From a virus, in IMG/VR virus record IMGVR_UViG_3300025117_000031, positions 1-64,000 of that record: a DNA stretch of 64,000 bases. The stretch is one strand, 5' to 3'. Position 1 is the stretch's first letter; every line of letters begins with the position of its first letter. Positions 1 through 44,387 of the stretch are shown piece after piece. The position numbers and the translations under genes were made by a program. The notes under the pieces were generated by a model, which was given only the letters and a program-made list of their open reading frames with translations, ran no database searches and was not told where the DNA came from.

Positions 1-363
1 ATTCTTCTTTCCGACAAGAGGGTTGATCCAACGGCCGATGACAACCATGCCATCCGATGGGCTTCGGCAAAAGGCCATGTTGAGGTCGTGAAGATTCTTC
101 TTTCCGACAAGAGGGTTGATCCAACGGCCGATAACAACTATGCCATCCTATGGGCTTCGGAAAGAGGCCATGTTGAGGTCGTGAAGATTCTTCTTTCCGA
201 CAAGAGGGTTGATCCAACGGCCGATGACAACCATGCCATCCGATGGGCTTCGGCAAAAGGCCATGTTGAGGTCGTGAAGATTCTTTACCAACACGACCCC
301 GACCACTATAACAAAGAAATGCCAGAAGTCGTCAAGAAATGGAATTTGGACAAGAAAGGATAA
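1..363 (+). CDS. Ankyrin-repeat protein, copy A (5' end outside window)
   Basis: 93-bp units start at 1, 94, 187 and 280, encoding ILLSDKRVDPTAD(D/N)NxAIxWASxxGHVEVVK. The C-cap YQHDPDHYNKEMPEVVKKW is shared with copies B and C. Confidence 0.9.
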   Translation: MLLSDKRVDPTADDNHAIRWASAKGHVEVVKILLSDKRVDPTADNNYAILWASERGHVEVVKILLSDKRVDPTADDNHAIRWASAKGHVEVVKILYQHDPDHYNKEMPEVVKKWNLDKKG

Positions 364-368
364 TTAAA

Positions 369-722
369 ATGTCTAACAGGATCTATTTCGAGTGTGGAGT
401 TGACAAGTATTTTAGTATGTCTCGGCCGCTTTATGCAATGAAGACGGAAGACAAGGATATCGGTTCTTGCATTGCGAAAGCTTTTGAAAGGGCCAATAAG
501 GGTAAGGCTTTCAAGGTTTTTTCGAAGGACGTTGGCAATTCTCGATATGAGCTTCTTTTCACCCGAGAGGCAAGAAAGAAGTTTGGTGGTGGGTATGTGG
601 TGATTGGTTCGATTCACGTTGAAGTGCTAAGAGAAGAAAAAGAAATTGTGAAACCAGTGAGGAGCCATTCTAACGGAGTTGGTCCGGTTGGGTTTATAAA
701 GCTGGGGGTTCTTCCCAAGTGA
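369..722 (+). CDS. Hypothetical protein
   Basis: ORF with AAAGGA RBS supplied by the ankyrin cassette tail; ATG at 369. Confidence 0.65.
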   Translation: MSNRIYFECGVDKYFSMSRPLYAMKTEDKDIGSCIAKAFERANKGKAFKVFSKDVGNSRYELLFTREARKKFGGGYVVIGSIHVEVLREEKEIVKPVRSHSNGVGPVGFIKLGVLPK

Positions 723-765
723 CAGAAGTGAAAGACGATACGGGAGGGTATGCTTTTTAATATTA

Positions 766-782
766 GCGCCCGTAGCTCAGTT
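766..782 (+). pseudogene. 5' fragment of a tRNA (acceptor strand and D-stem), cut by the TnpB element
   Basis: GCGCCCG-TA-GCTC-AGTT. GCGCCCG is exactly complementary to CGGGCGC at 2331-2337. Confidence 0.6.
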
Positions 783-2171
783 CCCATTTGAGACTTAAAC
801 CATGAACCCATTAGTTAACACAGTTGCTCAATTCCTGCCCATGAGGAAGTTTCGTTCTGGCCGTAGGGCCAGAACCAGAGCTTTCTTGACAGCAGGCTAT
901 CCCCGCCAGGGCGGCGGTTCTAAGATTAATGGCTGCGTTGATGTCTCGGTCGTGGACAACCCCACAAACCTCACAAACCCATTCTCGGATGGACAAAGGC
1001 AACGGTCCTTCTCGTCTTGTTCCACAGTCGGAACACAGCTTGGAAGAAGGGAACCAGCGGTCGGCAACAATGATTTCACTGCCGGCAAGCGGAGCTTTAT
1101 ACATAAGCTGACGCCTGATTTCCGACAAGGCAGCATCCGCAATCGACTTGGCAAGATGATGATTTGCCATCATCCCCTTGACGTTCAAGTCCTCGATTCC
1201 AATCCGACGAAAGTCTCGGACCAGCCGAGCGGTAAGCTTATGCGTTACGTCTTTGCGGATGTTGGAAATCCGTTCATGCAGCCGTCCAAGCTTCGTTTTA
1301 GTCTTCTGCCAATTTCTTCCTCCTATGACGCGACGAGACATTTCCTTGTTGAATCGTCGCAGTCTGGTTTCATGAGCACGCAGAATGCGTGGAGCCTCGA
1401 CCCGTTCTCCCGTAGAAAGCACGGCAAGGTCTCGGAGCCCGAGATCCACTCCAACCGCTTCTTGGGTTTCGCAGCGATGGGGATAGGACCAGGAGTCGGA
1501 GACTTGAATTTGGACCGAGACGTACCAATGACCGGCATGTTTCGTAAAGTGAGCGGACAGGATTTTACCAGGAAATCTTATCTCTTGTCGAGTGCGGACC
1601 CAACCAAGCTTGGGAATCTTAACTCTTCGGCCGTCAAAGCGAAGGGCTCGACCTTCAACGGCGAAGGACATTTTGCTTTGTTTCTTCGACTTGAAGCGGG
1701 GATAGCCGGGCTTTTGGCCAGATTTGATACGGCGAAAGAAGTTGGAGAAAGCATTGCCGAGGTTGGACAACGCCGTTGCAGCAACAGCCCACGGCAATTT
1801 TGCCATCCAAGGAAATTCGGTGTTTTTGCAGGCATTCAGCTCGGTGTTAAGACTGATCCAAGAGGGCTTTCCTTCGGCTTCGTATTGAGTTTTCCAACGG
1901 TCCAATCCCCAGTTGTAGACGAAGCGAGATGCACCAGCACAACGTTCGAAAAAGGTTGTTTGGATGTTATTTGGAACGAGTCGAATACGTTGACTGAGGA
2001 TAGTTATAGGGAGGCTTTTTTCAGAAGTTGTAGAAAGACGTTTCGACACATTATAAATATAGCACACGAAGTGAAATATGTTGACTTTTTTGTAAATTCA
2101 TTATTTTTAATAAGAGGAGAGAGCTTAAACTCATGTCGGCTGATGATTTCGTGGTTTAAATCTCGAACGGG
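783..2171 (-). mobile_element. TnpB-only element bounded by imperfect terminal inverted repeats
   Basis: Left end CCCATTTGAGACTTAAACCATGAA versus reverse complement of right end CCCGTTCGAGATTTAAACCACGAA. No tnpA inside. The same ends occur on four mini-copies. Confidence 0.85.
811..2049 (-). CDS. tnpB: TnpB RNA-guided endonuclease (IS607/IS605 OrfB type)
   Basis: N-terminal HTH (RFVYNWGL); RuvC motifs GVDLG, IEDLNV and HDRDINAA; zinc ribbon CSDCG/CEVCG. Start placed at GTG 2049 by analogy with the ATG of the mini-copies. Confidence 0.95.
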   Translation of the reverse strand: MSKRLSTTSEKSLPITILSQRIRLVPNNIQTTFFERCAGASRFVYNWGLDRWKTQYEAEGKPSWISLNTELNACKNTEFPWMAKLPWAVAATALSNLGNAFSNFFRRIKSGQKPGYPRFKSKKQSKMSFAVEGRALRFDGRRVKIPKLGWVRTRQEIRFPGKILSAHFTKHAGHWYVSVQIQVSDSWSYPHRCETQEAVGVDLGLRDLAVLSTGERVEAPRILRAHETRLRRFNKEMSRRVIGGRNWQKTKTKLGRLHERISNIRKDVTHKLTARLVRDFRRIGIEDLNVKGMMANHHLAKSIADAALSEIRRQLMYKAPLAGSEIIVADRWFPSSKLCSDCGTRREGPLPLSIREWVCEVCGVVHDRDINAAINLRTAALAGIACCQESSGSGPTARTKLPHGQELSNCVN

Positions 2172-2187
2172 ATGGTGTTCTCCTATT

Positions 2188-2263
2188 GCCCTGGTAACGG
2201 CCACGGCTTCTACCCGTGTGTACCGTAATTGGAATAATGCAGGTTCGAGCCCTGCCCAGGGCG
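2188..2263 (+). ncRNA. D-arm-less tRNA-like RNA with TCT in the anticodon-like loop
   Basis: Acceptor GCCCTGG/CCAGGGC; stem-loop CACGG-CTTCTAC-CCGTG; T-arm GCAGG-TTCGAGC-CCTGC; only 7 nt where the D arm should be. Confidence 0.6.
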
Positions 2264-2310
2264 TTATTATAAATAGTGGAGTCGAACTCGCTTTTGTATA
2301 AAAAATACAA

Positions 2311-2338
2311 GTCGGGAGTTCAAGCCTCTCCGGGCGCG
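2311..2338 (+). pseudogene. 3' fragment of a tRNA (T arm and acceptor strand)
   Basis: GTC-GGGAG-TTCAAGC-CTCTC-CGGGCGC-G; pairs with 766-772. Confidence 0.6.
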
Positions 2339-2356
2339 TAGGAAACGGAGGATAAA

Positions 2357-2553
2357 ATGTCTCTTTATGATTGGTTTGATCTCACAATTATGAGCATATA
2401 CGGGCATATGATATCGTGCAAAAGACAGGAGTGTGGCCAGAGGGTTTTCTTCCAGACTATATTGAAATTCCTGTCTTATGGTCTGTAATGTTGGCTGCCA
2501 AGATGGCGGATGCTTGGGTAGATTATATGTTACAGAAGCAGTCGGGCGCGTAG
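2357..2553 (+). pseudogene. Small gene with an apparent 1-nt frameshift, flanked by 15-bp direct repeats
   Basis: GGAGG RBS, then ATG 2357 (MSLYDWFD). It continues in another frame as HNYEHIRAYDIVQKTGVWPEGFLP...QSGA* ending at 2553. CGGGCGCGTAGGAAA occurs at 2331 and 2543. Confidence 0.5.
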
Positions 2554-2583
2554 GAAAAGAAGTGCGAGCAGAAAGAATTAAAA

Positions 2584-3594
2584 ATGGAAACAGAAAAACA
2601 AATTCTTGAGTTCACTGTTCCAGAGTCTTTGTTTCCAGGTGATCTTGCAGAAGCAAAAAAGAAATTTCACGAATTGGCTCTTTATTGGCATCCTGATAAA
2701 ACAACTGGTGATGCCAAGGTAATGTCACATATTACGGAGCTTTATAAAGAAGCAGTAAGGCTTCTAGAAACTGGGAAATGGAGAGGTTCTAGTTTTCTTG
2801 ATTTGAAAAAGAAGGGTGGTGGGAGTATTAGGTTCAAATACCTAGTTAGCAGAAGCTTCGAATTGGGGTACGTTTATATTGCGAATACCCACATTTCATA
2901 TTTAATTGATAAGAAGTTCGAACAATTTTCAAAAAGAGCAGAGAGAACTATAAAAAATCTTCATTATGCAGATGATAAAATGAAGAAAGAGATGTCGAAA
3001 ACCCTTCCAGAGTCAATAAAAGTATTTGAACTTGAAGATGATAAACTTCTTTTAACGATTCCAAAGTCAAAAAACCTTGTTCCGTTGCGAGAAGTTTTTA
3101 GCTATTACAAGGGAAAGATTGAACCAGTTCATGTAGCATGGATTGGGAGTGGATTGCACAACATAGCGTGTTATTTGGAGTGGGCTAAGATAGTTCATGG
3201 AGATATTTCTCTTGATTCCGTTTTTATTTCTCCTTCTGATCACAGCGTGTCTTTGTTGGGAAGTTGGTGGTTTGCTGTTCCAATAGATGAAAAGATTTCT
3301 ACGTTGCCAATTAGAACATACAAGTATCTGCCATGGGAGGTGAAATGTAACAAAATTGCTACACCTCTAGTAGATCTTGAGATAATTAGGGCTACTGTTC
3401 GAGAGTTGTTGGGAGATATTACAGGACGTTCTTTATCGTCAAGCCCCATGGTCGATCTGGTGCAGATTCCGGTGGACGACACGGCTCAGCGTGCTTACAA
3501 GTTGTGGCATGAGGCGTTGCAAAAAACATTTGGAAAACGCAAATTTGTCAAAATGGAGCTTCACGTCGATGAAGCTTACAAACAGGGAGAATAA
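2584..3594 (+). CDS. J-domain-like (HPD) plus protein-kinase-like fold protein
   Basis: AKKKFHELALYWHPDK N-terminal motif; VHGDISLDSVFI kinase-like catalytic loop. Confidence 0.7.
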   Translation: METEKQILEFTVPESLFPGDLAEAKKKFHELALYWHPDKTTGDAKVMSHITELYKEAVRLLETGKWRGSSFLDLKKKGGGSIRFKYLVSRSFELGYVYIANTHISYLIDKKFEQFSKRAERTIKNLHYADDKMKKEMSKTLPESIKVFELEDDKLLLTIPKSKNLVPLREVFSYYKGKIEPVHVAWIGSGLHNIACYLEWAKIVHGDISLDSVFISPSDHSVSLLGSWWFAVPIDEKISTLPIRTYKYLPWEVKCNKIATPLVDLEIIRATVRELLGDITGRSLSSSPMVDLVQIPVDDTAQRAYKLWHEALQKTFGKRKFVKMELHVDEAYKQGE

Positions 3595-3596
3595 TC

Positions 3597-4523
3597 ATGG
3601 GAAGCGGAAGATTTTCACCAACAGACTGGGCTTCTTATTCTAGCTCGCGTGGTTTGCACAAGGCTTCGACGACTGCGGCTCACATCTACAAGTCCTCTTC
3701 AATGAACGATGATTTAGATCCAAAGAAAATAAAGAATGGGCTGCGAGAATCTAGGGATTCCGCAGACAATCCCAACTCTACTCCAATTATCGTTGGACTA
3801 GACGTTACGGGTTCAATGTCTCGTATTTTGGAAATAATGGCAAAAAAGGGACTGAAAACCCTGTTCGAAGAGATTTATAATAGAAAGCCGGTGCGCGATC
3901 CTCATGTTCTTTGCGCTGCAATCGGCGATGCATACTGCGATAATTCTCCGCTTCAAGTTTCTCAATTTGAAGCAGATATTCGTATCGCAGAACAGCTTGA
4001 AAAGCTTTATCTTGAGGGCGGCGGCGGAGGAAATGATTCCGAAGGATATTCTCTCTTGCATTATTTTGCTGCGAAGCATACCTCGTGCGATGCCGTTGAA
4101 AAGAGAAACAGAAAGGGTTATTTATTTACTGTTGGCGATGACGGACCAACTCCAAAGATTCTTGTTGAGCATGCCCAATCAGTCTTCGGGGATACTATCG
4201 GCGAAGACATTTCCGGGAAACAGCTTTTGACAATGCTCACACGAAATTGGGAGGTTTTTCATTTGAATGTTGCTGAAGGTGGCTCATATGATAGTTGGGT
4301 TGTAGACCGCTGGAGAGCGTTGCTAGGAGAGCGTTCTTTGACTTTGACCGATCACACCAAGATGGCTGAAGTTATTGTTTCGGCAATTCAAGTTGTGGAA
4401 GGTTCTAAAGCAGACGACGTTGCTGATTCGTGGGATGGCAGTACGGCCATGGTTGTTCATAAAGCAATCTCTGGCCTAACAAGCTCCGCATCCTCAGACT
4501 CTCAAGGGCTGATTACTCTATAG
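3597..4523 (+). CDS. vWA-domain protein
   Basis: MIDAS-like DVTGSM, EGGGGGN and TVGDD. Confidence 0.8.
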   Translation: MGSGRFSPTDWASYSSSRGLHKASTTAAHIYKSSSMNDDLDPKKIKNGLRESRDSADNPNSTPIIVGLDVTGSMSRILEIMAKKGLKTLFEEIYNRKPVRDPHVLCAAIGDAYCDNSPLQVSQFEADIRIAEQLEKLYLEGGGGGNDSEGYSLLHYFAAKHTSCDAVEKRNRKGYLFTVGDDGPTPKILVEHAQSVFGDTIGEDISGKQLLTMLTRNWEVFHLNVAEGGSYDSWVVDRWRALLGERSLTLTDHTKMAEVIVSAIQVVEGSKADDVADSWDGSTAMVVHKAISGLTSSASSDSQGLITL

Positions 4524-4536
4524 AAAGAAGGGTGCA

Positions 4537-5676
4537 ATGCGACTGTCGGCTGTCATTGGAACTAATTATGGCGACGAAGGCAAGGGACACGTTGTTGATT
4601 GCTTGTCGGATAATAAAAGCCTTGTAATTAGATTCAACGGCGGGGCTCAAGCTGCTCATACTGTAATTAAATCTGATGGCAGCCGACACGTCTTTCATCA
4701 CTTTGGCTCAGGCACTTTTAATGGGGCTGCTACTTACTTCTCCAAGCATTTTATTGTAAATCCTGTTTTGTTTTCTCAAGAGCTTCTATCTCTGCCACCA
4801 GACCCAATTGTTTTGGCAGATCCACGATGTCTTGTAACCACACCAGTTGATATGATTTTAAACCAAACAATTGAAGCTTTAAGAGGCAAATATAAACACG
4901 GGAGTTGTGGCCTTGGTATCAACGAAACTGTTACCAGGAGCGAGGCAGGCTTTGCTATTGTTTTTAGGGATCTTTCAAACAGATCCCTTTTGAAGAAAAA
5001 GATCGAATTGATTGTTAATTTCTGGCTTCCCAGGAGGATGAGGGAGCTTAACATTATAGAAGATTTAGAGCAAGTTGACAATAAACAAATGTGGGAACAG
5101 TATTACGAAGACTGTGCCATTATGACTGCACGATGTGAATCTTTCTTATGGCCTCAATCTTCTACAAAACTACCAAATTACGAACACTTTATTTTTGAGG
5201 GGGCTCAGGGTCTTTTGTTAGATGAATACGGTAAAGACTTTCCCCACGTTACGAGGTCTAGGACGGGGTTGACAAACGTTTTGGCTATGTTAGAAGAAGC
5301 TAGAATTAAAGAGATGCTTGATATTTATTATGTTACGCGACCTTATCTTACAAGACATGGGGCGGGACCGTTAGAAAACGAATTAAAAGAAGCTCCATAT
5401 GGAATTGTTGATATTACAAACCAACCAAATATGCATCAAGACATATTAAGATATGCGTGGTTAGATATAACCAAAGTTGGAACAACTATTTCTCACGACT
5501 ATAAACAAACTACTTATCCGCTGAATGTGATTCTAGCCATTACTTGTCTTGACCAGATGCCGCAAGAGCTTCAGGCACTTTTGTATGGGAAAATGAAAAT
5601 GTTTACTCACGAAGCTTTTATACACAACCTAGAAGACGCTGTACAGGCAGACTGTGTAAGGGTTTTTAAGTATTGA
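4537..5676 (+). CDS. Adenylosuccinate synthetase-like protein (divergent copy)
   Basis: GTNYGDEGKG, RFNGGAQAAHT, FEGAQGLLLD, RPYLTRHGAGP. Confidence 0.85.
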   Translation: MRLSAVIGTNYGDEGKGHVVDCLSDNKSLVIRFNGGAQAAHTVIKSDGSRHVFHHFGSGTFNGAATYFSKHFIVNPVLFSQELLSLPPDPIVLADPRCLVTTPVDMILNQTIEALRGKYKHGSCGLGINETVTRSEAGFAIVFRDLSNRSLLKKKIELIVNFWLPRRMRELNIIEDLEQVDNKQMWEQYYEDCAIMTARCESFLWPQSSTKLPNYEHFIFEGAQGLLLDEYGKDFPHVTRSRTGLTNVLAMLEEARIKEMLDIYYVTRPYLTRHGAGPLENELKEAPYGIVDITNQPNMHQDILRYAWLDITKVGTTISHDYKQTTYPLNVILAITCLDQMPQELQALLYGKMKMFTHEAFIHNLEDAVQADCVRVFKY

Positions 5677-5726
5677 CATCTTTCGTTTTTCCCGGTAAGA
5701 TGGAGTTTTAGAAAGAAGGTTAGATA

Positions 5727-6425: not shown

Positions 6426-6443
6426 ATATATATAATTATATAT

Positions 6444-9899: not shown

Positions 9900-11327
9900 A
9901 TGGGAAACGTTACAATTAAGAAATTTCAAATTCATAAGCCGATTGGACTTTCTTGGCAGGAGTTTGGGAAAAAGATTCGTTTACTGTCAGAACAATGTTC
10001 AGACATAAAAAACACTTATGCTGTAGAATATTATTTAGCAGATAGAAAGAATTTAGAAATAGAAAACAAGCTGCTCTCGTCTTTTGAATTTAAAAACGGC
10101 AAGTATGATAAATCTTCAAAGGAGGGGTGTCTTAAGTCTAAAACCTATCATACTCTGGTTAAACCAAAATATCTCTTGATTTCTACTCCGATTATGGAAG
10201 GACTTAAAATACAAGTTGGAGACTTTTATGTGAGACACAGGTTTGCAACTTTAGTAAAAAAAGAAGAGTCTGTTTTGTTCTTTAAAAGAACAAGCCCAGT
10301 TCCCTTCCCCAAGGGCAGTTATGAACTCTTTTTGTCCGAGGAGAAAGAATTTTGTGTTAGGCTTACAACAGGGTCAAAGAGTGTTCCCAAAGAGGAAAGA
10401 AAAATTAGCTTTGTTTTAAAAAGTTCAAAGCTTCCTGCTTTTCTCAAAAAAGAAATGAAGAGTATGTGGGAAGGGAGGCTTGGAACCGGAGAGTGCTATT
10501 TGCAGATAAAAGATAATAAGATTTTCTTTCTTGTGTCTTGCAAACACCCTCCGGTTGTCACAGAGCTAGACTCAAATGTTATTATGGGAATTGATTTGGG
10601 GATAGCGCATCCGTGGACTATTGCTTTTTCTAATTCCGAAAAGCGGGACTTTTCAATGGATGCTTCTTTAATACGAAAAAATCAAACCCAATTTCGGGAA
10701 AGAAGAAGAAGTATTCAAAGAGGATATAAAAACTATGAAGAGCGCAAAGGAAGAGGACGAAAGAAAGCCCTAGAGCCAACGCTTTCAATCGAAAACAGGG
10801 AGAGTAGTTGGGCAGATACAATGAACCACAAAATGTCTAAAGCATTGATTAACCGAGCAATAAAAGAAGGAGCTAAAACCATTCAAATGGAAAACCTTTC
10901 TGGCATTACTGCCGGGAAAAAGCCAAAGTTTCTTAAAAATTGGAGATATTTTGATCTTCAAACAAAGATAGAATATAAGGCAAAGATTGTGGGAATTAAG
11001 GTTGTGAAGATAAATCCTCAATACACGTCTCAAAGGTGTTCAGAGTGTGGAACGATCCACGAAGATAATCGCAAGACACAAGAAAAATTTGTTTGTGTTT
11101 CTTGTGGATATACTGCAAACGCAGATTATAATGCAGCAAAAAACATTGCTACAAAAGACATAGAAAATATGATTAAGGAATATTGCATAAAAAACAAACT
11201 TCCTTACCGTGGATTAAAGGATGATGAGTATGAATGTGAGGAGACTGGTACGTCGGAGACGGAAGAGTCTTCAACAAGACGAGAAGAAGAAAAAGCTGTT
11301 GACAAAAGCATAGAAGATGTGCTATAG
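9900..11327 (+). CDS. cas12f: Compact type V effector, Cas12f (Cas14/C2c10)-like
   Basis: 475 aa. RuvC MGIDLG, IQMENLSGI and NADYNAAKNIA; YFDLQTKIEYKA and YTSQRCSECG...CVSCG typical of Cas12f1/TnpB. Adjacent tracr-like RNA and CRISPR array. Confidence 0.85.
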   Translation: MGNVTIKKFQIHKPIGLSWQEFGKKIRLLSEQCSDIKNTYAVEYYLADRKNLEIENKLLSSFEFKNGKYDKSSKEGCLKSKTYHTLVKPKYLLISTPIMEGLKIQVGDFYVRHRFATLVKKEESVLFFKRTSPVPFPKGSYELFLSEEKEFCVRLTTGSKSVPKEERKISFVLKSSKLPAFLKKEMKSMWEGRLGTGECYLQIKDNKIFFLVSCKHPPVVTELDSNVIMGIDLGIAHPWTIAFSNSEKRDFSMDASLIRKNQTQFRERRRSIQRGYKNYEERKGRGRKKALEPTLSIENRESSWADTMNHKMSKALINRAIKEGAKTIQMENLSGITAGKKPKFLKNWRYFDLQTKIEYKAKIVGIKVVKINPQYTSQRCSECGTIHEDNRKTQEKFVCVSCGYTANADYNAAKNIATKDIENMIKEYCIKNKLPYRGLKDDEYECEETGTSETEESSTRREEEKAVDKSIEDVL

Positions 11328-27055: not shown

Positions 27056-27697
27056 TTACAACCTCATTCCTTCGAATTCTTCTTCGCAGACAAGTTGTTC
27101 CAACATATAAAAAAATTCGGGGGAAGAACGAATCAGCTTAAAAAGTGGATTATCATCTAATTGTGAATAAAACTCCATGAAAGGATATTTTAGAGAGGGA
27201 TAAAGATAAAAAACGTCTTCTATATTTCTATTGTCTTCAAACTGAGACCAGTTAAAAGTTGGGCTTATTTCGTCAAAAAAATCTTTCCAAACTTTAACTT
27301 TATTTTTTGTTTCTACAGAAGGGTCAAATAAGTCTTCCGCAGAGATTGCTTTAAGTTTTTCGCTTTTGTTTTGGTAATAGGCTTCATATAGAAGGAAATC
27401 AATAAAAGAAGCGAGAGGAACGTTGCCTTTTCGTTGATTATTGTCGTCAAATATGGCTTCATAAACGGCAGAGTATAAAGAATCCAAATTTTCGTGTTTC
27501 TTTAGAAAAAACTGTTCTTTGAAGAGACAGAGAATTTCAAAGTTACTTACTTCTGTCTCACTGCAGTATCCTTCTTTCTTCAGAAGTTCAAACCACTTTT
27601 CGTTAACTTCTTTAGTATCGAATTCGAGCCACCGAAGATAATCATCAACAACACAGAACATTTTTCGAAGGTCTTCTAGAGCATAACTGTTTTTCAT
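27056..27697 (-). CDS. Hypothetical acidic protein
   Basis: RBS supplied by the ankyrin cassette tail; MKNSYAL start. Confidence 0.7.
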   Translation of the reverse strand: MKNSYALEDLRKMFCVVDDYLRWLEFDTKEVNEKWFELLKKEGYCSETEVSNFEILCLFKEQFFLKKHENLDSLYSAVYEAIFDDNNQRKGNVPLASFIDFLLYEAYYQNKSEKLKAISAEDLFDPSVETKNKVKVWKDFFDEISPTFNWSQFEDNRNIEDVFYLYPSLKYPFMEFYSQLDDNPLFKLIRSSPEFFYMLEQLVCEEEFEGMRL

Positions 27698-28233
27698 TTT
27701 GTTTCCTTTTTCTTGTCCAAATTCCATTTCTTGACGACTTCTGGCATTTCTTTGTTATAGTGGTCGGGGTTATGTTGATAAAGAATCTTCACGACCTCAA
27801 CATGGCCTTTTTCCGAAGCCCGTCGGATGGCAAGGTTGTTATCGGCCGTTGGATCAACCCTCTTGTCGGAAAGAAGAATCTTCACGACCTCAACATGGCC
27901 GTTTGCCGAAGCCCATCGGATGGCATAGTTGTCATCGGCCGTTGGATCAACCCTCTTGTCGGAAAGAAGAATCTTCACGACCTCAACATGGCCTTTTGCC
28001 GAAGCCAATTGGATGGCAGTGTTGTCATCGGCCGTTGGATCAATCCTCTTGTCGGAAAGAAGAATCTTCACGACCTCAACATGGCCGTTTGCCGAAGCCA
28101 CTCGGATGGCAGCGTTGTCATCGGCCGTTGGATCGAACACATCCATCGACAGAATTAAAGCCGCTTCCTTGTCTTTGCCTTTATTGCAAAGCTCCCAAAA
28201 AAGCCGCTCTCCTCTGTTTTGTTCTCTTTCCAT
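27694..28233 (-). CDS. Ankyrin-repeat protein, copy B (4 repeats)
   Basis: 93-bp units; promoter TTGACA-N17-TATCCT 8 nt before the ATG (leaderless). Confidence 0.92.
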   Translation of the reverse strand: MEREQNRGERLFWELCNKGKDKEAALILSMDVFDPTADDNAAIRVASANGHVEVVKILLSDKRIDPTADDNTAIQLASAKGHVEVVKILLSDKRVDPTADDNYAIRWASANGHVEVVKILLSDKRVDPTADNNLAIRRASEKGHVEVVKILYQHNPDHYNKEMPEVVKKWNLDKKKETK

Positions 28234-28315
28234 TTCGGCCGAGGATAACAAAAATAAAAGAAGATGTCAAGCTTTTTGTTATTTATGCTATATTTATTCC
28301 AAGGAGAGGAAAACA

Positions 28316-29407: not shown

Positions 29408-29860
29408 TTATCCAATAATTGTATTCATGTTCTTTATAATCTTTAGTCTCTCTTCCATGTCTTTCCAGTGTTTGTCAATCTGTTCCGCCATTCCCACAAT
29501 TTCTAAATAAGACTGATGAACATACTCTTTAATGTAACATCTTTCGTCTTCGGAAAAGGAAAAATCAAAATCTCTTTTTATTTTTTCTTCTATTGTTGGA
29601 AGAATTTGATCTATATAAAATGTTACGTGCCCTCTTTTTTCGATGCTATTAACCTGCAGTTGGATTCCTGCGGGGACATAAGAAAACAAAACTTTAAATT
29701 CACTTTGGAATTTAGGATACTGGAGCTTCCTATAGGAAGACACTCCTATAGTTTTCCTATAGGAAGACACTCCTATAGTTATTTTTTCTTTATCTTCTCG
29801 GATAAAGTTTAAAGTATAAAGACCGTCCTGATATTCCATCTTATGGAAAAGAATATTCAT
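29408..29860 (-). CDS. Hypothetical protein with an in-frame 27-bp duplication (29727-29780)
   Basis: TIGVSSYRK x2; paralog of its neighbour. Confidence 0.75.
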   Translation of the reverse strand: MNILFHKMEYQDGLYTLNFIREDKEKITIGVSSYRKTIGVSSYRKLQYPKFQSEFKVLFSYVPAGIQLQVNSIEKRGHVTFYIDQILPTIEEKIKRDFDFSFSEDERCYIKEYVHQSYLEIVGMAEQIDKHWKDMEERLKIIKNMNTIIG

Positions 29861-31386: not shown

Positions 31387-31573
31387 AACGAGTACAGTTA
31401 TAGCAATCTTGATAACCCTTTCGACACTTGGACAGAATTTCTTTATTTACCGGCTCTATTTCGGTAAGTTCAAGAAGAAGGGGGTTTGGTCCGGATCTAC
31501 TACAAAGAAGGCTTGAGCAGCCTTTGCAAGGTCCAACGGACTTTCTCGCTAGTTTGTAAATTATTTTAGACAT
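31292..31573 (-). CDS. Cys-rich hypothetical protein
   Basis: ORF directly after ankyrin copy C. Confidence 0.55.
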   Translation of the reverse strand: MSKIIYKLARKSVGPCKGCSSLLCSRSGPNPLLLELTEIEPVNKEILSKCRKGYQDCYNCTRYDCGDNTNSIIFENEKEKCPNKLHLCRNGTY

Positions 31574-31978
31574 TTAAACTCCACTTCTTGACGACTTCTG
31601 GTGTCTTTTTGTTATAGTGGTCGGGATCTTGTTGATAAAGAATCTTCACGACCTCAACATGGCCTTTTGCCGAAGCCCATCGGATGGCAAGGTTGTTACC
31701 GGCCGTTGGATCAACCCTCTTGTCGGAAAGAAGAATCTTCACGACCTCAACATGGCCTTTTGCCGAAGCCCATCGGATGGCAGTGTTGTCATCGGCCGTT
31801 GGATCAATCCTCTTGTCGGAAAGAAGAATCTTCACGACCTCAACATGGCCGTTTGCCGGTTGTCATCGGCCGTTGGGTCGAACACATCCATCGACAGAAT
31901 TAAAGCCGCTTCCTTGTCTTTGCCTTTGTTGCAAAGCTCCCAAAAAAGTCGTTCCCCTCTGTTCTGTTCTCTTCCCAT
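31566..31978 (-). pseudogene. Ankyrin-repeat protein, copy C, frameshifted
   Basis: Same promoter and N-cap as copies B and D. The first repeat lacks ~19 nt of the variable segment (GACAAC|CGGCAAAC at ~31858), breaking the frame. Confidence 0.85.
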
Positions 31979-32019
31979 TTCGGCCGAGGATAACAAAAAT
32001 AAAAGAAGATGTCAATCCC

Positions 32020-36346: not shown

Positions 36347-36405
36347 TATGACAAAATTTACATGAGCATAACAGAAGTAAAAGAAGATGTCAACAAGAAA
36401 ACAAT

Positions 36406-37288: not shown

Positions 37289-37312
37289 GCGAAGAACTAG
37301 AAAAGTTAATAT

Positions 37313-37590: not shown

Positions 37591-37885
37591 TTTGGGATTG
37601 TATTCTTTTCGAAGAAGAAAAGAAGAAATCCGAAGATAAGCGCGAACAACTTCAAGCTCCTTCTCCCGAAATACCCTATTGGCAGGAAAACGAGAATAAA
37701 TAATGGAAATTATTGCTCTTTTGTTTCTTTTTATATTAGCTTGCTGTCTTAATTACATTAAAATTAAGGCAGCAGCAATTGTTTTGTTTTGGGTTGTTAC
37801 GATAATTGGAGGAGTTTTTCTTCTTTTAACTCTTACCATGCCAGCAGAAAAAGAGGAAAAGCAGTAGGATTCGCCTATTTAGAGC

Positions 37886-38140
37886 ATGAACTATTCTTTC
37901 CATTGTCGCGATTGCCAACTATATTTTGAAAAAAGAGAATTTCCAGTTTCTTCCTGTCCTGTTTGCAAGGGGACAAACGGAATTCAAAGAAAAATAGATA
38001 AAAGTTTTCATTTTATGTGTCCCATATGTGGACAGTTGTATGAATCTAAAGAAGAACCGTTGTTTTGTACGTTGTGTAGGTCGGAAGTAAAAGAAGTCCT
38101 CATTGTAGCTCAGAGGAGAAAAATAGATGAAAATAACTAA
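37886..38140 (+). CDS. Double zinc-ribbon protein
   Basis: Four CxxC pairs; CTATTTA motif 4 nt before the ATG. Confidence 0.7.
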   Translation: MNYSFHCRDCQLYFEKREFPVSSCPVCKGTNGIQRKIDKSFHFMCPICGQLYESKEEPLFCTLCRSEVKEVLIVAQRRKIDENN

Positions 38141-38702: not shown

Positions 38703-38760
38703 TAAAGCTTGACTTTCTTTCTTATTTAAGTATAGTATAAAAATCATCTCGGAGGACTAA

Positions 38761-39018
38761 ATGTCCAAGACGCTTGAAGAACTGTGCAAAGAGGCCGAGC
38801 AAAAGCAAATGCTTAGCAACAAGCTCCACACAAAGGAAGAGTTCCAATCATATACAGAAGAAAAGACAGCTCTGGTCGAAACGTTTTTTGAGGAAAACGG
38901 CATTGAGGCCAATTACGACCTTCATTTCTCAAATTCTTCCGAAGATGATATCATTATTGATGTCGAGGACTTTGATCTAATTATGGAGCTTGTTAACAAC
39001 CTCAAGAAGCGAGGGTAA
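38761..39018 (+). CDS. Hypothetical protein
   Basis: GGAGG RBS; distant similarity to the next ORF (FFxxNG). Confidence 0.65.
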   Translation: MSKTLEELCKEAEQKQMLSNKLHTKEEFQSYTEEKTALVETFFEENGIEANYDLHFSNSSEDDIIIDVEDFDLIMELVNNLKKRG

Positions 39019-39019
39019 G

Positions 39020-39274
39020 ATGTTTAATCCATCGAAAATCTTTGAGCGTGTGCAGTCAAGACTAGATAAGTTCCCGACCAGGGAAGCATGGGATAAGTAC
39101 GAGGAAGACAAGCAAAAGGAAATTATCAACTTCTTTGCGAAAAACGGATTTAATTTGGATTTTCCTGAACTCCAAACATGTTTGAATCTGTTTGGTAGAA
39201 ATACAGTTAGGCTTCCACTCCCGGAGTTTGAGAAGCTAATTAATTTGGTTAAGGAACTTAAAAAGAATTCGTAG
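39020..39274 (+). CDS. Hypothetical protein
   Basis: GAGG RBS, MFNPSK start. Confidence 0.6.
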   Translation: MFNPSKIFERVQSRLDKFPTREAWDKYEEDKQKEIINFFAKNGFNLDFPELQTCLNLFGRNTVRLPLPEFEKLINLVKELKKNS

Positions 39275-39589
39275 CTATTTTTTCTTCGGCTGTGAAGAAG
39301 CTTCCAAGATAGCTTTGATGTCACATATCGAAGTTTCGATGTTGCTTAGTTTAACGTTTATTACCGCATAATTCGTCTCAAGACTGCTTGTTCTTTTTTC
39401 TATATTCTCTATATCTTCAATGTTCTTTGATACGTCTTGGAGAGTTCTTTCTTGAAGGGTTGATGCTTTCGCTTGAAACGCTGGAACCCCAACAATTATT
39501 CCCAAAGCAAGCCCTACGATCGTAAAAATCGCTGGGAATATATAGTGTTTATGCCAACTTGGTAGAGAATCTAAAAATTTCATGAGCAT
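39275..39589 (-). CDS. Single-TM coiled-coil protein
   Basis: Transmembrane segment followed by heptads. Confidence 0.6.
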   Translation of the reverse strand: MLMKFLDSLPSWHKHYIFPAIFTIVGLALGIIVGVPAFQAKASTLQERTLQDVSKNIEDIENIEKRTSSLETNYAVINVKLSNIETSICDIKAILEASSQPKKK

Positions 39590-39647
39590 TCTCCCTATAA
39601 AGAAAACCCACTCATAATAAATAGTTTATCTTATTTGTTTTTTGAAG

Positions 39648-39995
39648 TTATTCTAAACAGTGATTTTCTATAAGACAACCCAAAACGCACTTTAAGGATG
39701 GATTTTGTTCACACTCGACCCAAAAGCAACGATGTAGGCAAACTATTGCAATATCCGGAAGAGAATTTTCCACAGAAGAAAAGGTATAATCTACGTTGTT
39801 ATAGCTGTAGTAAAATGCTACAGACATTGAAGGTTGTGATTCTTTTTTCTCTTCTTGCACATCTTTTATAAGACAAGCAGCATCGGAATGTCCCGAAGCA
39901 TCTAGAACATCTTCTTTATAGTCTGTAGAACAAGAGGAAAGAAACCAAATTAAACAAAGCAGCAACAATATTGCTGCTAGCAAGAACCTTTGCAT
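39648..39995 (-). CDS. Putative lipoprotein
   Basis: Signal peptide with LSSC lipobox. Confidence 0.55.
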   Translation of the reverse strand: MQRFLLAAILLLLCLIWFLSSCSTDYKEDVLDASGHSDAACLIKDVQEEKKESQPSMSVAFYYSYNNVDYTFSSVENSLPDIAIVCLHRCFWVECEQNPSLKCVLGCLIENHCLE

Positions 39996-40146
39996 TTATA
40001 TTCGTCCTTCGCACAATCGGCTGGAGTTTTTATTTTTGACTCCTTGGAACAGTCGTACCTTGCGCTTTCGCAAGAATCAAAACACTTCCTATCCATGAAG
40101 CATAGGCAAGAAGAGCTAAAAAGAAAGAAGACAACAGCTATTACTT

Positions 40147-40947
40147 TCAAAACTCTACCACCAGATCCCCGGAAAATCCGGTTCTCTCGTCAGGATAGCC
40201 ATAAGGATTACAAACAAATCTTGTGTTAGCTAGTTTAAAATCTCTATAGGTGTGGGTATGACCAAAAACCCACAGTTTAGGCTGATTTCTGAGAACTAAA
40301 TCGTTAAGGGGTCTAGATGTATTGTAGAAGAACAGATTTAAAGGGTGATTTGCATAAAGAGCATGAGAACAATCAGAATTGGGCATGTGATGGGTAACGA
40401 CAACGTCCCCCGGCTGCACAGTAGAGGTTAAAAACTTAACGGCAGTTTGGTTTTCTCTAGTGATCTCATCCAAAGAGTTGCGAATTTGACCAAAATCATT
40501 AAACTGCTGGCAAAGCAGAATGTGCTGCGGAACATCATAAAAGTTAGTCCACAGGGTGGAGCCAACATACCTTTGTCCGTTAATTGTTACAGTTTTATTG
40601 TCCAACAGGAAATATCTGTCCTTTGGGAGGTTGTTAAATACATTTTCAAGCTTCTTTCTTGTCTCTCGAATTGAAAGCTTGCCAGACGAATAATATTCGT
40701 GGTTCCCAGGAACAAAAATCACATACTTAAATACAGTTCCAAACGATTGCAAAGCATAAAGCATTTCCACCTCGCCGTGGACCACTCCATTAAAATTCAT
40801 CAAATCCCCTGAGATAATAACCGTATCAGGGGTAGAGCGAAAGACACCAGAATTAAGAGTGTTTAGAATGCCTTTAATCCTATTTGCCCTTGCTGTCGGG
40901 TTTAGAAACTCAAGATGCAGATCAGAAACAACAGATAAACTTTTCAT
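40147..40947 (-). CDS. Calcineurin-like metallophosphoesterase
   Basis: SDLHLE, SGD, PGNHEYY, THH, GHTH. Confidence 0.92.
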   Translation of the reverse strand: MKSLSVVSDLHLEFLNPTARANRIKGILNTLNSGVFRSTPDTVIISGDLMNFNGVVHGEVEMLYALQSFGTVFKYVIFVPGNHEYYSSGKLSIRETRKKLENVFNNLPKDRYFLLDNKTVTINGQRYVGSTLWTNFYDVPQHILLCQQFNDFGQIRNSLDEITRENQTAVKFLTSTVQPGDVVVTHHMPNSDCSHALYANHPLNLFFYNTSRPLNDLVLRNQPKLWVFGHTHTYRDFKLANTRFVCNPYGYPDERTGFSGDLVVEF

Positions 40948-41333
40948 TTTTTTGCCTTTGTTGGGCACCCAATGTCATTGCTACAAGAACAAGCATACTT
41001 TCTTGAGCCTGTCTCTGTTGAGCCCATTTCTACAGAGACCCAATAGGGTTCTTCTGCTTTTTTATCTTCTTCTTTTGCTAAAGAGAGAAGAGCATATCCC
41101 AAAACATCTTTCCAGGGCGATTCGCCAAAAGCGTCTTTTTTTGTGGCAATACGAAACAATTTATCTATCACCCTTACAACCGTTAGAGCATCGCCATACG
41201 CCTCAACGGGAATTCCAGAGGGATACAAAACCTTAATTATCTCTTTTGCTTTGCCAAAAGAGTCGCCATACGCAAGTTGTTTTTCTTTTACTAAGTTGGC
41301 AATTTCAAGGGCAATCTTTTCGAAATCTTTCAC
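40944..41333 (-). CDS. Nucleotide-modification-associated (MazG/DUF1599-like) helical protein
   Basis: EKQLAYGDSF, RVIDKLFRI, DVLGYALL. Confidence 0.65.
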   Translation of the reverse strand: MKDFEKIALEIANLVKEKQLAYGDSFGKAKEIIKVLYPSGIPVEAYGDALTVVRVIDKLFRIATKKDAFGESPWKDVLGYALLSLAKEEDKKAEEPYWVSVEMGSTETGSRKYACSCSNDIGCPTKAKK

Positions 41334-41473
41334 TCATCACCTCTTTTTTGTTCTCTTCAGTACAAGCACACGATATTACAACTCCTCGATTTGTGTGCAT
41401 GATTCTTCTCTTTTTGTTACAAACTTTACAATATCCTTTTGTTGAATACGATTGCTGGATAACGACGGTAGCT

Positions 41474-41896
41474 TCACTCATGGATTTTCCTCATTGTGAT
41501 GTTTGTTTTTTTCCAAGCCTCTTGAACTAGTTCATCTTCATACGGTTCTTTGAAGACAATATGTTTAATTCCGGCGTTGGCTAAAAGCTTAAAACACCCG
41601 AAACACGGACTTGCCGTAATATAAATAGTAGAGTTATTTAAAGAAATCCCATTTTTTGCAGCTTGTGCGATAGCGTTTGCTTCAGCGTGTATGGTCCTAA
41701 TGCAATGTCCGTCCCGAAGAATGCACCCGTCTTGTTCACAATGCGGCAGCTTAGAGATAGAACCGTTATAGCCGGTAGTGAGAATTGCGTTGTCTCGAAC
41801 AATAACCGCTCCAACCTTTTTTCTGCAGCAGGTAGAGCGCTCCGCAACCATTTCGGCAAGAGAGATAAAATAATTATCCCAACTCTTTCTTTCCAT
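41474..41896 (-). CDS. dCMP deaminase
   Basis: HAEANAI, SPCFGC, TGYNG. Confidence 0.92.
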   Translation of the reverse strand: MERKSWDNYFISLAEMVAERSTCCRKKVGAVIVRDNAILTTGYNGSISKLPHCEQDGCILRDGHCIRTIHAEANAIAQAAKNGISLNNSTIYITASPCFGCFKLLANAGIKHIVFKEPYEDELVQEAWKKTNITMRKIHE

Positions 41897-42984
41897 TAAA
41901 GTCTAACCTGTTTCTTTGACCAGCCGGTTGCCATAATCGAAGCCTTTGCAAAATGCTGTACATAGGCCAAAAGCTCTTCAAAATTAACTTCACTATAAAA
42001 TGGCTTAAATTCCTTAATGGAATCTTTGTCCATGAGGTTTGAAAGAAATCGCGGTTCTCCTTCGACACTTTTGTGAGCAACACAAACTTTAATTGTTTCT
42101 TCTGGCAGCAACACGTCGCATTTGGTGACAAAAAGGTCGGTGCAGCCGTTAACACGAGCCGCATGCGCCAGAAGAGGCAGGTCAAGCCAGCCAACCCGTC
42201 GGGGTCGTCCTGTCGTAGTGCCGTATTCTCCGCCTCTTTCTCTAATACGCTTGGCAGTTGTTTCTTCTTCTCCAACCATCTCTGTTGGAAAGGGTCCATC
42301 TCCAACCTTGGTCATGTACGGCTTTAATACCCCCACAACGCTGGTAACGTGTCCTGGGCCAAAGCCACAGGAGACACAAGCCGCAGCAGCAACATTGCTC
42401 GTTGTAGAAATATAAGGGTAGAACCCGTGGTCGATGTCCAAAAGGGCTCCCTGCGAACCCTCAAACAAAACCTTTTGTCCGTTTTGCAGATGTTGATTAA
42501 TTTCTGCGGAAATGTCACAAATATAGGGCTTTAGGGCAGGAACCGTAATGGCCTTTATCGCGCGTCGAGAATATTTAGCTTCTGCAGCAGGTGACATTCC
42601 TCTCTTGGTCGAACCAACACCGGACCCCGAATTCTCTCTTTGAGCGTCGAGTTCTTTGTGAGAAGCAGTAATAATATTTGCGTCTGCTGAGATTTTTAAC
42701 AGATTTTCTACATCAAACCCCAGTTGTTTATATGCTTTGATTTCTTCTAGAAGAATTTCGGGGTCAATATACATTTGACTGCCCATATAACAAAGCTTTT
42801 CATGTATAATACCAACCGGAAGATGATGAAATTTATATAGTTTGTCTCCAATCCAAACAGAAGCCCCTGTGTTTGGACCTCCAGAATAGCGAACACAGAC
42901 ATCGTGTGTGGTCATTAGCTGAGAAGAGACTTTTCCCTTACCCTCATCTCCGAACTGAAGTCCTACTACAATTGTTGCTGGCAT
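41896..42984 (-). CDS. purA: Adenylosuccinate synthetase
   Basis: GLQFGDEGKG, FEGSQGALLDIDHGFYPY, EYGTTTGRPRRVGWLD, TKCD. Confidence 0.93.
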   Translation of the reverse strand: MPATIVVGLQFGDEGKGKVSSQLMTTHDVCVRYSGGPNTGASVWIGDKLYKFHHLPVGIIHEKLCYMGSQMYIDPEILLEEIKAYKQLGFDVENLLKISADANIITASHKELDAQRENSGSGVGSTKRGMSPAAEAKYSRRAIKAITVPALKPYICDISAEINQHLQNGQKVLFEGSQGALLDIDHGFYPYISTTSNVAAAACVSCGFGPGHVTSVVGVLKPYMTKVGDGPFPTEMVGEEETTAKRIRERGGEYGTTTGRPRRVGWLDLPLLAHAARVNGCTDLFVTKCDVLLPEETIKVCVAHKSVEGEPRFLSNLMDKDSIKEFKPFYSEVNFEELLAYVQHFAKASIMATGWSKKQVRL

Positions 42985-43523
42985 TTATTTTCCCTTTGTC
43001 TAACATATTCCGCAAGAAGAATACTTGCGCAGACTGCTGTGTTTAAACAATACGCCGAACCTGGCATTTTAATAAAAACCACATCTGAGTTCACGAGAAT
43101 GTCCACCGGAACGCCAATTGTCTCATGTCCTGTAATTATACAACACCTTTGCTCGTTGTTTGTCGGAAACTTGTAATCCCACAAAGATTGCGAGCCTTCA
43201 CAAAACTCTGCGCTAATTAGCTTGATATTGTTCTGCCGAGAGTAAGAAAGAAATTCATAAGGGTTTGCAAACTGGTTGATCTTTACTAAGTCTTGAGTGG
43301 AACCAGAAGTCGCAACAATTGTTCTATGATCTGGAATTGTTCCAATAATATTTACAACCGGCACTCCAAAGCAGGCAGCACTTCGAATAAGCATTCCAAC
43401 ATTTTCGGAATGTTCAAAATTTAAAGCTGCAAGTTCAATTGGATATTGAGTTGCAATCTTCTTCTTTTGCTCATATCGAGAACGACGGGTTTCAACGCGA
43501 GAAGACAAAAGAGAAGTGTTCAT
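42966..43523 (-). CDS. SpoU/TrmH-family RNA methyltransferase
   Basis: NVGMLIRSA, GHETIG, MPG...LN. Confidence 0.88.
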   Translation of the reverse strand: MNTSLLSSRVETRRSRYEQKKKIATQYPIELAALNFEHSENVGMLIRSAACFGVPVVNIIGTIPDHRTIVATSGSTQDLVKINQFANPYEFLSYSRQNNIKLISAEFCEGSQSLWDYKFPTNNEQRCCIITGHETIGVPVDILVNSDVVFIKMPGSAYCLNTAVCASILLAEYVRQRENKCQQQL

Positions 43524-43554
43524 GAAATTATGATAACAGATTTTATTCTTTAAG

Positions 43555-44316
43555 TCAAGCGGGAAATTTACATCCGGCATCTTTTAAAAGCTTCACGACC
43601 TCAACATGGCCGTTTCCCGAAGCCCATAGGATGGCACGGTTGTCACCGGCCGTTGGATCAACCCTTTTGTCGGAAAGAAGAATCTTCAAGACCTCAACAT
43701 GGCCTCTTTCCGAAGCCCATCGGATGGCATAGTTGTCACTGGCCGTTGGATCAACCCTTTTGTCGGAAAGAAGAATCTTCACGACCTCAACATGGCCGTT
43801 TCCCGAAGCCCATTGGATGGCACGGTTGTCACCGGCCGTTGGATCAACCCTTTTGTCGGAAAGAAGAATCTTCACGACCTCAACATGGCCGTTTTCCGAA
43901 GCCCATCGGATGGCATAGTTGTTGTTGGCCGTTGGATCAACCCTCTTGTCGGAAAGAAGAATCTTCAAGACCTCAACATGGCCGTTTCCCGAAGCCCATT
44001 GGATGGCAAGATTGTCACCGGCCGAGGGATCAACCCTCTTGTCGGAAAGAAGAATCTTCACGACCTCAACATGGCCGTTTCCCGAAGCCCATTGGATGGC
44101 ACGGTTGTCACCGGCCGTTGGATCAACCCTCTTGTCGGAAAGAAGAATCTTCACGACCTCAACATGGCCGTTTCCCGAAGCCCATTGGATGGCACAGTTG
44201 TCATCGGCCGAGGGATCGAACACATCCATCGACAAAATTAAAGCCGCTTCCTTATCTTTGCCTTTGTTGCAAAGCTCCCAAAAAAGCCGCTCTCCTCTGT
44301 TGTGTTCTCTTTCCAT
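43555..44316 (-). CDS. Ankyrin-repeat protein, copy D (7 repeats)
   Basis: 93-bp units; same promoter and N-cap as B and C; different C-terminus. Confidence 0.92.
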   Translation of the reverse strand: MEREHNRGERLFWELCNKGKDKEAALILSMDVFDPSADDNCAIQWASGNGHVEVVKILLSDKRVDPTAGDNRAIQWASGNGHVEVVKILLSDKRVDPSAGDNLAIQWASGNGHVEVLKILLSDKRVDPTANNNYAIRWASENGHVEVVKILLSDKRVDPTAGDNRAIQWASGNGHVEVVKILLSDKRVDPTASDNYAIRWASERGHVEVLKILLSDKRVDPTAGDNRAILWASGNGHVEVVKLLKDAGCKFPA

Positions 44317-44387
44317 TTCGGCCGAGGATAACAAAAATAAAAGAAGATGTCAATCCCCTACTGTATATTTTGAAAATGTTTCGTTAA

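Follow-up and report, generated by a model that had tools for sequence, protein, structure and literature searches.

Small ankyrin-repeat genes of a large tailed phage: near-identical 31-residue units, variation at seven inner-helix codons and occurrence in unrelated viral contigs

Introduction

The highly internally conserved (HiC) repeats (ANK, TPR and WD) of fungal NLR receptors show repeat-number polymorphism and concerted evolution, both within and between loci (Dyrka et al. 2014, PMC4986451; PMC2873952). In the ANK type, about five positions per repeat are positively selected, and these map to the concave face, where they occupy the inner helix and the loop (PMC4986451; PMC2873952). The repeats pair combinatorially with different N-terminal domains (PMC4986451; PMC2873952, Podospora hnwd family). 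Ankyrins have also been described from phages: the Ankyphage preprint reports 418 IMG/VR phage contigs with ANK domains, the modulation of eukaryotic immune cells by ANKp and the presence of signal peptides in two of the three Ankyphage ANKs (bioRxiv 10.1101/608950). Here, we describe a family of small ankyrin-repeat genes in the initial 64 kb of a viral record of 153,920 bp (IMG/VR record IMGVR_UViG_3300025117_000031, positions 1 to 64,000; this stretch is referred to as the window). The record has the IMG/VR class linear and a CheckV completeness of 85%.

Similar principles are known from other systems. The TAL effector repeats of Xanthomonas are near-identical tandem units of ~100 bp, which differ in a few specificity codons and are reshuffled by recombination. 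These proteins are bacterial type III effectors; they bind DNA and have two variable residues. Phage morons and T4-type mobile promoter cassettes are genes with their own promoter and an atypical GC content, placed between unrelated genes. Homology starts at the promoter in such cassettes, and recombination may plausibly join sequences there.

The genes described here probably represent a recently expanded family of binders, which is diversified by mutation, selection and recombination without the participation of a retroelement.

The ankyrin loci

Tandem Repeats Finder reports 93-bp arrays at four sites of the window (1-285, 27781-28134, 31638-31858 and 43591-44217; 91-95% matches, 0 indels). 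All four arrays translate into 31-residue ankyrin units. The loci are as follows.

Locus A, 1..363, plus strand: 3' part of an ankyrin gene, cut at the contig start; three 93-bp units (1-279), C-cap type 1 and stop codon
Locus B, 27694..28233, minus strand: intact ankyrin gene (179 residues) with N-cap1, 4 units and C-cap1
Locus C, 31566..31978, minus strand: frameshifted copy; two intact units and C-cap1 are out of frame
Locus D, 43555..44316, minus strand: intact ankyrin gene (253 residues) with N-cap1, 7 units and C-cap type 2 (LLKDAGCKFPA)

The Pfam family Ank_2 is matched above the cut-off by D (E=4e-49) and by B (E=6e-21). The Pfam search of B, D and the proteins P0009, P0114 and P0124 returned Ank families only and no NOD domain (NACHT or NB-ARC). 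Thus, the four loci built from 93-bp units, which had been listed in a preliminary description of the window, stand as such. The list had to be amended at two points: A is cut by the contig start, and a fifth fragment is found close to the other end of the contig (153796-153920). It consists of the promoter and an N-cap fragment, is 100% identical to B over 125 nt, and is probably a fifth ankyrin gene. The phage carries at least five small ankyrin-repeat genes.

Locus A is 100% identical over all 120 residues to the C-terminus of the database protein P0009. The N-terminus of P0009 is a different domain of ~105 residues (N-dom2), which is absent from this contig. Because P0009 is identical over these 120 residues and begins with N-dom2, locus A is probably the tail of an N-dom2 gene. 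We also considered if the contig closes to a circle through locus A. This was dismissed, since its ends have no overlap and A-type units are joined to a different N-domain in P0009.

Locus C had been described as carrying a deletion exactly in the variable segment. It has indeed lost 19 nt across codons 16-22 of unit 1 (junction at ~31858/31859), which shifts the frame and leaves a product of 48 residues. This locus is either a pseudogene or an assembly error.

The GC content of the cassettes is 48-51%, compared to 39.2% for the genome. As judged from sequence, the products have no signal peptide; the N-terminus (MEREQNRGERLFWELCNKGKDKE) is charged and helical (H2-18 in the model described below).

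Variation is concentrated at seven codons

The 16 intact units were cut in register, and every codon was tabulated. Only 18 of the 93 columns vary. Silent variation is restricted to three sites (AAG/AAA in codon 6, CCA/CCC in codon 10 and AAC/AAT in codon 15), and nearly all differences are found in seven hypervariable codons. The allele sets given in the preliminary description are exact across the 16 units. The alleles are as follows.

Codon 13: GAT/GGT/AGT/AAC
Codon 14: GAC/AAC
Codon 16: CAT/TAT/GCT/ACT/CTT/TGT/CGT
Codon 19: CGA/CTA/CAA
Codon 20: TGG/GTG/TTG/CGG
Codon 23: GCA/GAA/GGA
Codon 24: AAA/AGA/AAC

The check proposed at the outset, namely to compute per-site allele counts and the ratio of nonsynonymous to synonymous change, was run on these 16 units. 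According to the Nei-Gojobori method, the proportion of nonsynonymous differences (pN) is 0.30 and that of synonymous differences (pS) is 0.03 at the seven hypervariable codons (pN/pS ~9). For the rest of codons 9-31, the values are 0.013 and 0.029 (pN/pS 0.4). When minimal substitution steps are counted, 19 of 25 fall within 21 of the 93 sites (binomial P=2e-8). At the DNA level, identity amounts to 98.2% in the framework and to 93% over whole units. Change is thus concentrated at seven codons, and the silent fraction is low. The conserved codons that are interleaved with the variable ones (15, 17, 18, 21 and 22) hold a single silent change in 16 units; the differences between units are thus in-place point substitutions rather than imports from diverged donors. 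Taken together, the amino-acid pattern at the seven codons argues for diversifying selection on binding, and not for drift or imported diverged segments.

Variable codons might also be explained by neutral hot spots of mutation or by relaxed constraint in genes that decay, and copy C is indeed broken. We consider this highly improbable. The contrast in pN/pS between the seven codons and the remainder stands against it, and reading frames are intact in A, B, D and every relative. The variable positions are multi-allelic and all located on one structural element; their alleles are chemically diverse, and proline and stop codons are avoided. In addition, a comparison with 337 units of the 31-residue family from 114 homologues revealed that positions 4, 6, 27 and 1 vary as much as the binding-face positions in the wider family. 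These positions, free to vary elsewhere, are frozen in the cassettes.

Predicted fold and position of the variable residues

An AlphaFold model of B was built with an alignment of 66 homologues (pLDDT 91.7). Paired helices are predicted for each unit. Within a unit, the model shows a long helix 1 from unit codon 12 to 23/24, a short G-H turn, helix 2 and a seven-residue loop (DKRVDPT). There is no beta-hairpin or strand in this model. A single-sequence model of D had been of mediocre quality (pLDDT 70) with an odd helix placement; it was superseded by the alignment-based model of B.

All seven hypervariable codons are predicted to lie on helix 1, the inner helix, which is the usual binding surface of ankyrins. 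The preliminary description had assigned the variable positions to the beta-turn and helix 1. The assignment to helix 1 is retained. On a helical wheel, the variable codons point to ~189 degrees and the conserved A/I/A/S/N residues to ~14 degrees (permutation value 0.059).

The best Foldseek matches of B in the PDB are consensus-designed ankyrins and many DARPins (TM score 0.71-0.75, root-mean-square deviation ~2.5 Å, probability 1.00). The proposed DARPin-like architecture thus agrees with what is found: an N-cap, 2-7 units and a C-cap. Upon HMMER alignment to ankyrin-R/B, codons 23/24 correspond to the two variable positions that precede the G-H turn, codon 16 is at or beside the Thr of TPLH, and codons 19/20 are at the His and Leu positions. 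Based on this alignment and on published DARPin design, five of the seven variable codons coincide with DARPin library positions 2, 3, 5/6, 13 and 14. The unit departs from the canonical 33-residue TPLH form, having 31 residues and xAIxxAS in place of TPLHLAA.

No components of a diversity-generating retroelement

In a diversity-generating retroelement (DGR), variable codons would be rewritten from an adenine-rich template, and the AAC codon is the classic target of such systems. The preliminary description had offered a DGR with a template elsewhere in the genome as one possible origin of the variation, and gene conversion plus strong diversifying selection as the other. There are points in favor of a DGR. 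These are the NNT pattern at codon 16, where the third base never changes, and the restriction of variation to a small number of codons. In addition, some 15% of the genome is not covered, so that a reverse transcriptase could be off-contig.

No reverse transcriptase was detected: RVT_1 has no match at E<=1 across the 153,920 bases, while positive controls were detected. RVT_1 is also absent from the 55.6-kb relative G001, and Avd (PF05635) has no match in the 154 kb. A sensitive low-stringency blastn search with the unit returned the four arrays only, all other matches having E>0.1, and thus no diverged copy that could serve as a template.

The mutation spectrum does not fit either. Only 6 of 23 consensus adenines vary, the other 17 being invariant. 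In 12 of the 18 variable columns, the consensus base is other than A, and in 5 of them no unit of any gene has an A. Codon 15 (AAC) and the A at the third position of CNA/GNA codons are fixed, although many substitutions at these sites would be synonymous. The seven NNT codons and the CGA/CTA/CAA, GCA/GAA/GGA and AAA/AGA/AAC sets are found again in ten more units, taken from three other genomes, and only two new alleles are added at the seven hypervariable codons. Because units from other genomes reuse the same alleles, the data indicate a shared, finite pool of codons and not an ongoing hypermutation. The fixed third base needs no special mechanism, since it is predicted by a pS of 0.03. Finally, the variable target is a tandem ankyrin array and not a single C-terminal variable region of the lectin or Ig type. 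We therefore attribute next to no probability to a DGR and do not retain this origin of the variation. Gene conversion with strong diversifying selection fits the data, units being as similar between genes (identity 0.930) as within genes (0.933).

Shuffling of units and caps

This equality of unit identity within and between genes is the hallmark of family-wide concerted evolution. A four-gamete pattern is seen in 32 of 78 informative site pairs, some of which are just 1-3 nt apart. Among the 40 units of 12 closely related genes, there are 25 unit types, and identical units recur across genes, orders and genomes. N-cap1 and N-dom2 are each found together with C-cap1 as well as with C-cap2, so that all four pairings occur. 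Within 90% clusters, members differ by entire units; in one member, units 5-7 of D are present in unchanged order and are followed by the other C-cap. The number of units in close relatives ranges from 2 to 7, and some of these numbers may reflect assembly variants. The postulated shuffling of repeats is supported by these different combinations of units and caps. Recombination is the mechanism to which they point.

N-dom2 corresponds to residues 1-108 of P0009 and is also encoded in L024 (3082-3789 and 5971-6603), which is also the location of the P0114 gene. It is characterized by the motif GLNVDVLPFNPxGxCxxGGxYFSD. For the N-dom2 of P0009, no Pfam family and no relative in IMG/VR were found. 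Language-model look-alikes of this domain are mostly from giant-virus clusters; at a score of 0.85 they are sub-threshold and provide a lead only.

A third N-terminal body, of ~380 residues, is fused to four units in G001. An identical fusion gene is present in L045, which is from another metagenome. The first ~130 residues of this body match a PARP/ART-like protein of the phage under study. It is conceivable that the shared N-terminus could represent a common targeting or packaging module. The PARP/ART-like protein has 444 residues (genome 125542-126876, corresponding to L015:1542-2876, plus strand), and its match to PARP/ADP-ribosyltransferase is weak (27.8 bits compared to a cut-off of 26.7). 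The N-terminus of ~130 residues is common to this protein and the four-unit ankyrin fusion of the relative (L041:6823-8430).

Occurrence of the cassette in other viral contigs

The cassette is found with 92-97% DNA identity in L007/G001, L023 and L024. The flanks in these contigs share with the genome under study only TnpB-type elements and one short segment. The TnpB-type elements of L024 and G001 are 84-94% identical to those of this phage. The cassettes had been described as dispersed and mobile, and promoter plus gene are indeed found in viral contigs that are otherwise unrelated. Only two other IMG/VR contigs match the promoter or framework exactly, and the family is therefore local and rare.

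It was considered if the cassettes hitch-hike on TnpB/IS elements. This was not adopted, as B, C and D are 2-4 kb or more away from any such element. Locus A is ~420 bp from a TnpB-like element, and one of the cassettes in L024 abuts a mini-element.

Promoter and cassette borders

B, C and D are preceded by an identical 29-nt promoter, TTGACA-N17-TATCCT (29/29), as had been reported. It has an extended -10 TG in the 17-nt spacer, and the ATG follows 8 nt downstream, with no Shine-Dalgarno sequence between promoter and ATG. The same promoter is present at the contig 3' end. The following sites share this layout or are related to it.

28242..28270, minus strand: promoter of B; TTGACA, 17 nt with TG extension, TATCCT
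31987..32015, minus strand: promoter of C; 29/29 identical
44325..44353, minus strand: promoter of D; 29/29 identical
43530..43558, minus strand: second promoter with the same layout; TTGACT-17-TATCAT, ATG 6 nt later
36365..36393, minus strand: nearest non-cassette relative of the promoter; 26/29 identical, with a repeated mini-element instead of an ankyrin gene downstream

The second promoter overlaps the stop codon of D and adjoins a gene for a SpoU-type methylase (42966-43580). It serves the next gene, and the homology between the cassette and the relative L007 ends here on the 3' side. Homology between copies begins exactly at the -35 hexamer and fades at or just past the stop codon. No terminator-like site was found after the cassette genes.

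The strong sigma-70-type promoter abutting the ATG suggests a leaderless or near-leaderless mRNA and early expression. The possibility that this layout is a genome-wide habit was rejected: only 4 cases with an ORF of >=50 residues occur (0.13 expected), and all of them sit at or beside cassettes.

Relatives and possible targets

The 31-residue ankyrin subtype is abundant (757 database matches), with named members from chytrid fungi and F-box fusions. It is common in metagenome-assembled genomes (MAGs) of giant viruses and in chytrids, and a period of 31 is seen in 179 of ~220 spacings. Multi-gene arrays of this subtype occur in giant-virus MAGs and in other viral contigs. The nearest matches in prokaryote genomes (<=58% identity) are from Pirellulales, Legionella tunisiensis, Francisellaceae and Chlamydiales. 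A comparison with 50,697 isolate phage records gave matches to Wolbachia WO phages only, and these are weak (~31-41% identical). One further viral contig, L009 (IMGVR_UViG_3300020577_005304), carries in 1-5200 at least four neighbouring ankyrin genes with 30-residue units, in which the equivalent helix-1 positions vary. This array has more silent divergence than the cassettes and looks like an older, independent case of the same pattern.

The proteins may act in the cytoplasm as binders. We tentatively propose, as a reading that is quite possibly correct, that variable proteins of the bacterial host are targeted, either for takeover or for counter-defence. Alternatively, the proteins could be effectors against a eukaryote (a protist or animal that harbours or grazes on the bacterial host) rather than against the bacterial cell. 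This would be in line with the nearest 31-residue relatives being from giant-virus MAGs, chytrid fungi and F-box fusions, with the taxa of the nearest prokaryote genomes (Legionella, Francisellaceae, Chlamydiales and Pirellulales), and with the giant-virus look-alikes of N-dom2, as far as such a lead carries. In addition, the known phage ankyrins (ANKp of sponge Ankyphages and those of Wolbachia phage WO) are tied to eukaryote interaction. However, there is no signal peptide as judged from the sequence, unlike in ANKp. Neighbouring phage genes have promoters of the same type, and one relative fuses the array to a phage body that shares its N-terminus with the PARP/ART-like phage protein. We thus regard a eukaryotic target as unlikely.

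Proposed mechanism and its uncertainties

For the family of binders proposed here, the following mechanism would account for the observations. Each gene would be a self-contained cassette, extending from the -35 hexamer to the stop codon or just past it. The units would share an ancestor so recent that silent sites are nearly untouched, while amino-acid changes would have piled up repeatedly at the seven inner-helix codons via diversifying selection on binding. Homologous recombination in the invariant framework (57 nt between the variable segments) would alter the number of units, and recombination would also swap blocks of units, N-modules and C-caps between paralogues. Whole cassettes would be moved by recombination between co-occurring phage genomes. 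The products would act as cytoplasmic binders of variable proteins.

Some points weigh against this interpretation. The selection estimate is from 16-26 units only, and the split between variable and conserved faces on the helical wheel is only suggestive at its permutation value of 0.059. The order and number of units within arrays are derived from short-read assemblies, which break at these repeats: G001, L023 and the contig under study each terminate at or within a cassette. Some of the mosaic variants from short contigs could be assembly chimeras.

The last points raise the question if the dispersed copies, or the arrangement of their units, are artefacts of short-read metagenome assembly. 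Contigs that stop at a cassette would be expected in this case; moreover, the stretch of identity at a shared unit may be longer than the k-mers usually employed, and length variants are mainly from contigs of 1-4 kb. This explanation is nevertheless very unlikely. B, C and D are interior to the contig with unique flanks on both sides. The 36-nt variable segment fits into a single read, and 14 distinct segments occur among the 16 units. The three-unit order of locus A is found again in P0009, on another contig, and contigs of two separate metagenomes have the four-unit fusion gene in identical form. Thus, the copies and the unit variants are real. There is an appreciable chance, although well below even, that at least one array has been mis-ordered or mis-counted.

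Genome context

The source is a large (over 154 kb) tailed phage. Several of its proteins were identified via PHROGs (large terminase, portal, baseplate wedge, tail protein and an SbcC-like nuclease). The large terminase subunit (TerL) is only 41% identical to that of Flavobacterium phage immuto and 39% to that of Microcystis phage Mel-JY01; the lineage is therefore new. Elsewhere in the window, there are sugar-nucleotide enzymes, a Ro60-like gene, TnpB-type elements and two PurA-like genes.

The two adenylosuccinate-synthetase-like genes are located at 4537-5676 (plus strand) and 41896-42984 (minus strand), the second being two genes downstream of cassette D. Both are far below the NCBIfam cut-offs for PurA and PurZ (the second with 118.6 bits compared to 300). 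They are possibly linked to modified-purine DNA.

TnpB/Cas12f-like genes (Cas12f1-like TNB domain, OrfB_IS605) occur in several copies. In the window, they are found at 9900-11327 (plus strand) and also at 802-2301; more copies are located at genome positions 74684-76024, 95690-97030 and 146635-147978. Shorter mini-elements related to the TnpB genes are at ~22.6, 25.4, 36.1 and 37.4 kb.

ARAGORN calls a tRNA-SeC (anticodon TCA) at 49117-49190 (minus strand), which may be a suppressor tRNA or a tRNA-like RNA. It adjoins the Ro60-like gene (phrog_850, 49262-50908). The region 44501-64000 (minus strand) is a long one-strand run of genes for sugar-nucleotide and modification enzymes (a dehydrogenase, an aminotransferase, two epimerase-like genes, radical SAM and nucleotidyltransferases), which is an uncommon load for a phage. 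At 29727-29780 (plus strand), 27 bp are perfectly duplicated in tandem, and each copy consists of an 8-bp hairpin (CTATAGGA...TCCTATAG) followed by T-rich sequence.

Comparison with known systems

The ANK/WD/TPR HiC repeats of fungal NLRs are the closest known parallel. In both cases, units are near-identical in DNA, selection affects the binding face, the number of repeats changes, and N-terminal modules vary. The HiC criterion is an internal identity of >85% over at least 100 residues; the mean for D is 86.7% amino-acid identity over 217 residues, and the value over all 14 internal units is 84%. In contrast to the fungal receptors, the phage genes have no NOD (NACHT/NB-ARC), code for small stand-alone proteins with an own promoter each, have a unit of 31 rather than 33 residues, and are part of cassettes that move between viral genomes.

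DARPins share with the phage proteins an N-cap, a few identical consensus units and a C-cap, and TM scores are 0.71-0.75. The phage family is, however, natural, its unit has 31 residues with a long helix 1, and the model lacks the beta-hairpin. Two additional helix-1 positions are variable (the equivalents of His and Leu in TPLHL), and the variable sites use small allele sets instead of a full randomisation.

Ankyphages with ANKp and Wolbachia phages WO are similar in that ankyrin accessory genes are carried by tailed phages. The cassette proteins differ by having no signal peptide, as already mentioned, and multi-copy, DNA-identical units with codon-specific variation are not described in the Ankyphage preprint. 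TAL effectors resemble the cassettes in their near-identical, reshuffled units, while fold and ligand are unlike those of the phage ankyrins. With respect to morons, the ankyrin cassettes have a promoter consensus, identical in all copies, and a GC content of 48-51% compared to 39%; no terminator was found after them, and their mobility is deduced from distribution only. DGRs also focus variation on a few codons of a binding surface, but all of their defining parts are absent here, and the mutation spectrum is wrong. The family is thus a clean negative example for DGR calling: NNT variation with fixed third bases arises without a retroelement when silent divergence is very low.

It is tempting to speculate that co-occurring phages share a mobile ankyrin cassette with its own promoter, in which units, caps and N-modules are continually recombined within genomes and between them. 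It would be a heritable, combinatorial repertoire of binders on the virus side of an arms race, a viral counterpart of the fungal NLR HiC receptors in which broken copies such as C perhaps serve as unit donors. We consider this attractive but doubtful. If the targets are host proteins involved in defence or takeover, the cassettes would be a compact natural system for the viral evolution of binding specificities and would supply stable 31-residue scaffolds with naturally validated variable positions. Phage ankyrins as such have been known already, and near-identical repeats with selected binding positions and shuffling are known from fungal immune receptors, but not from bacteriophages. What is new is that this pattern is found in a bacteriophage, that the genes code for stand-alone, DARPin-sized proteins and have promoters of their own, and that the cassette would move between otherwise unrelated phages.

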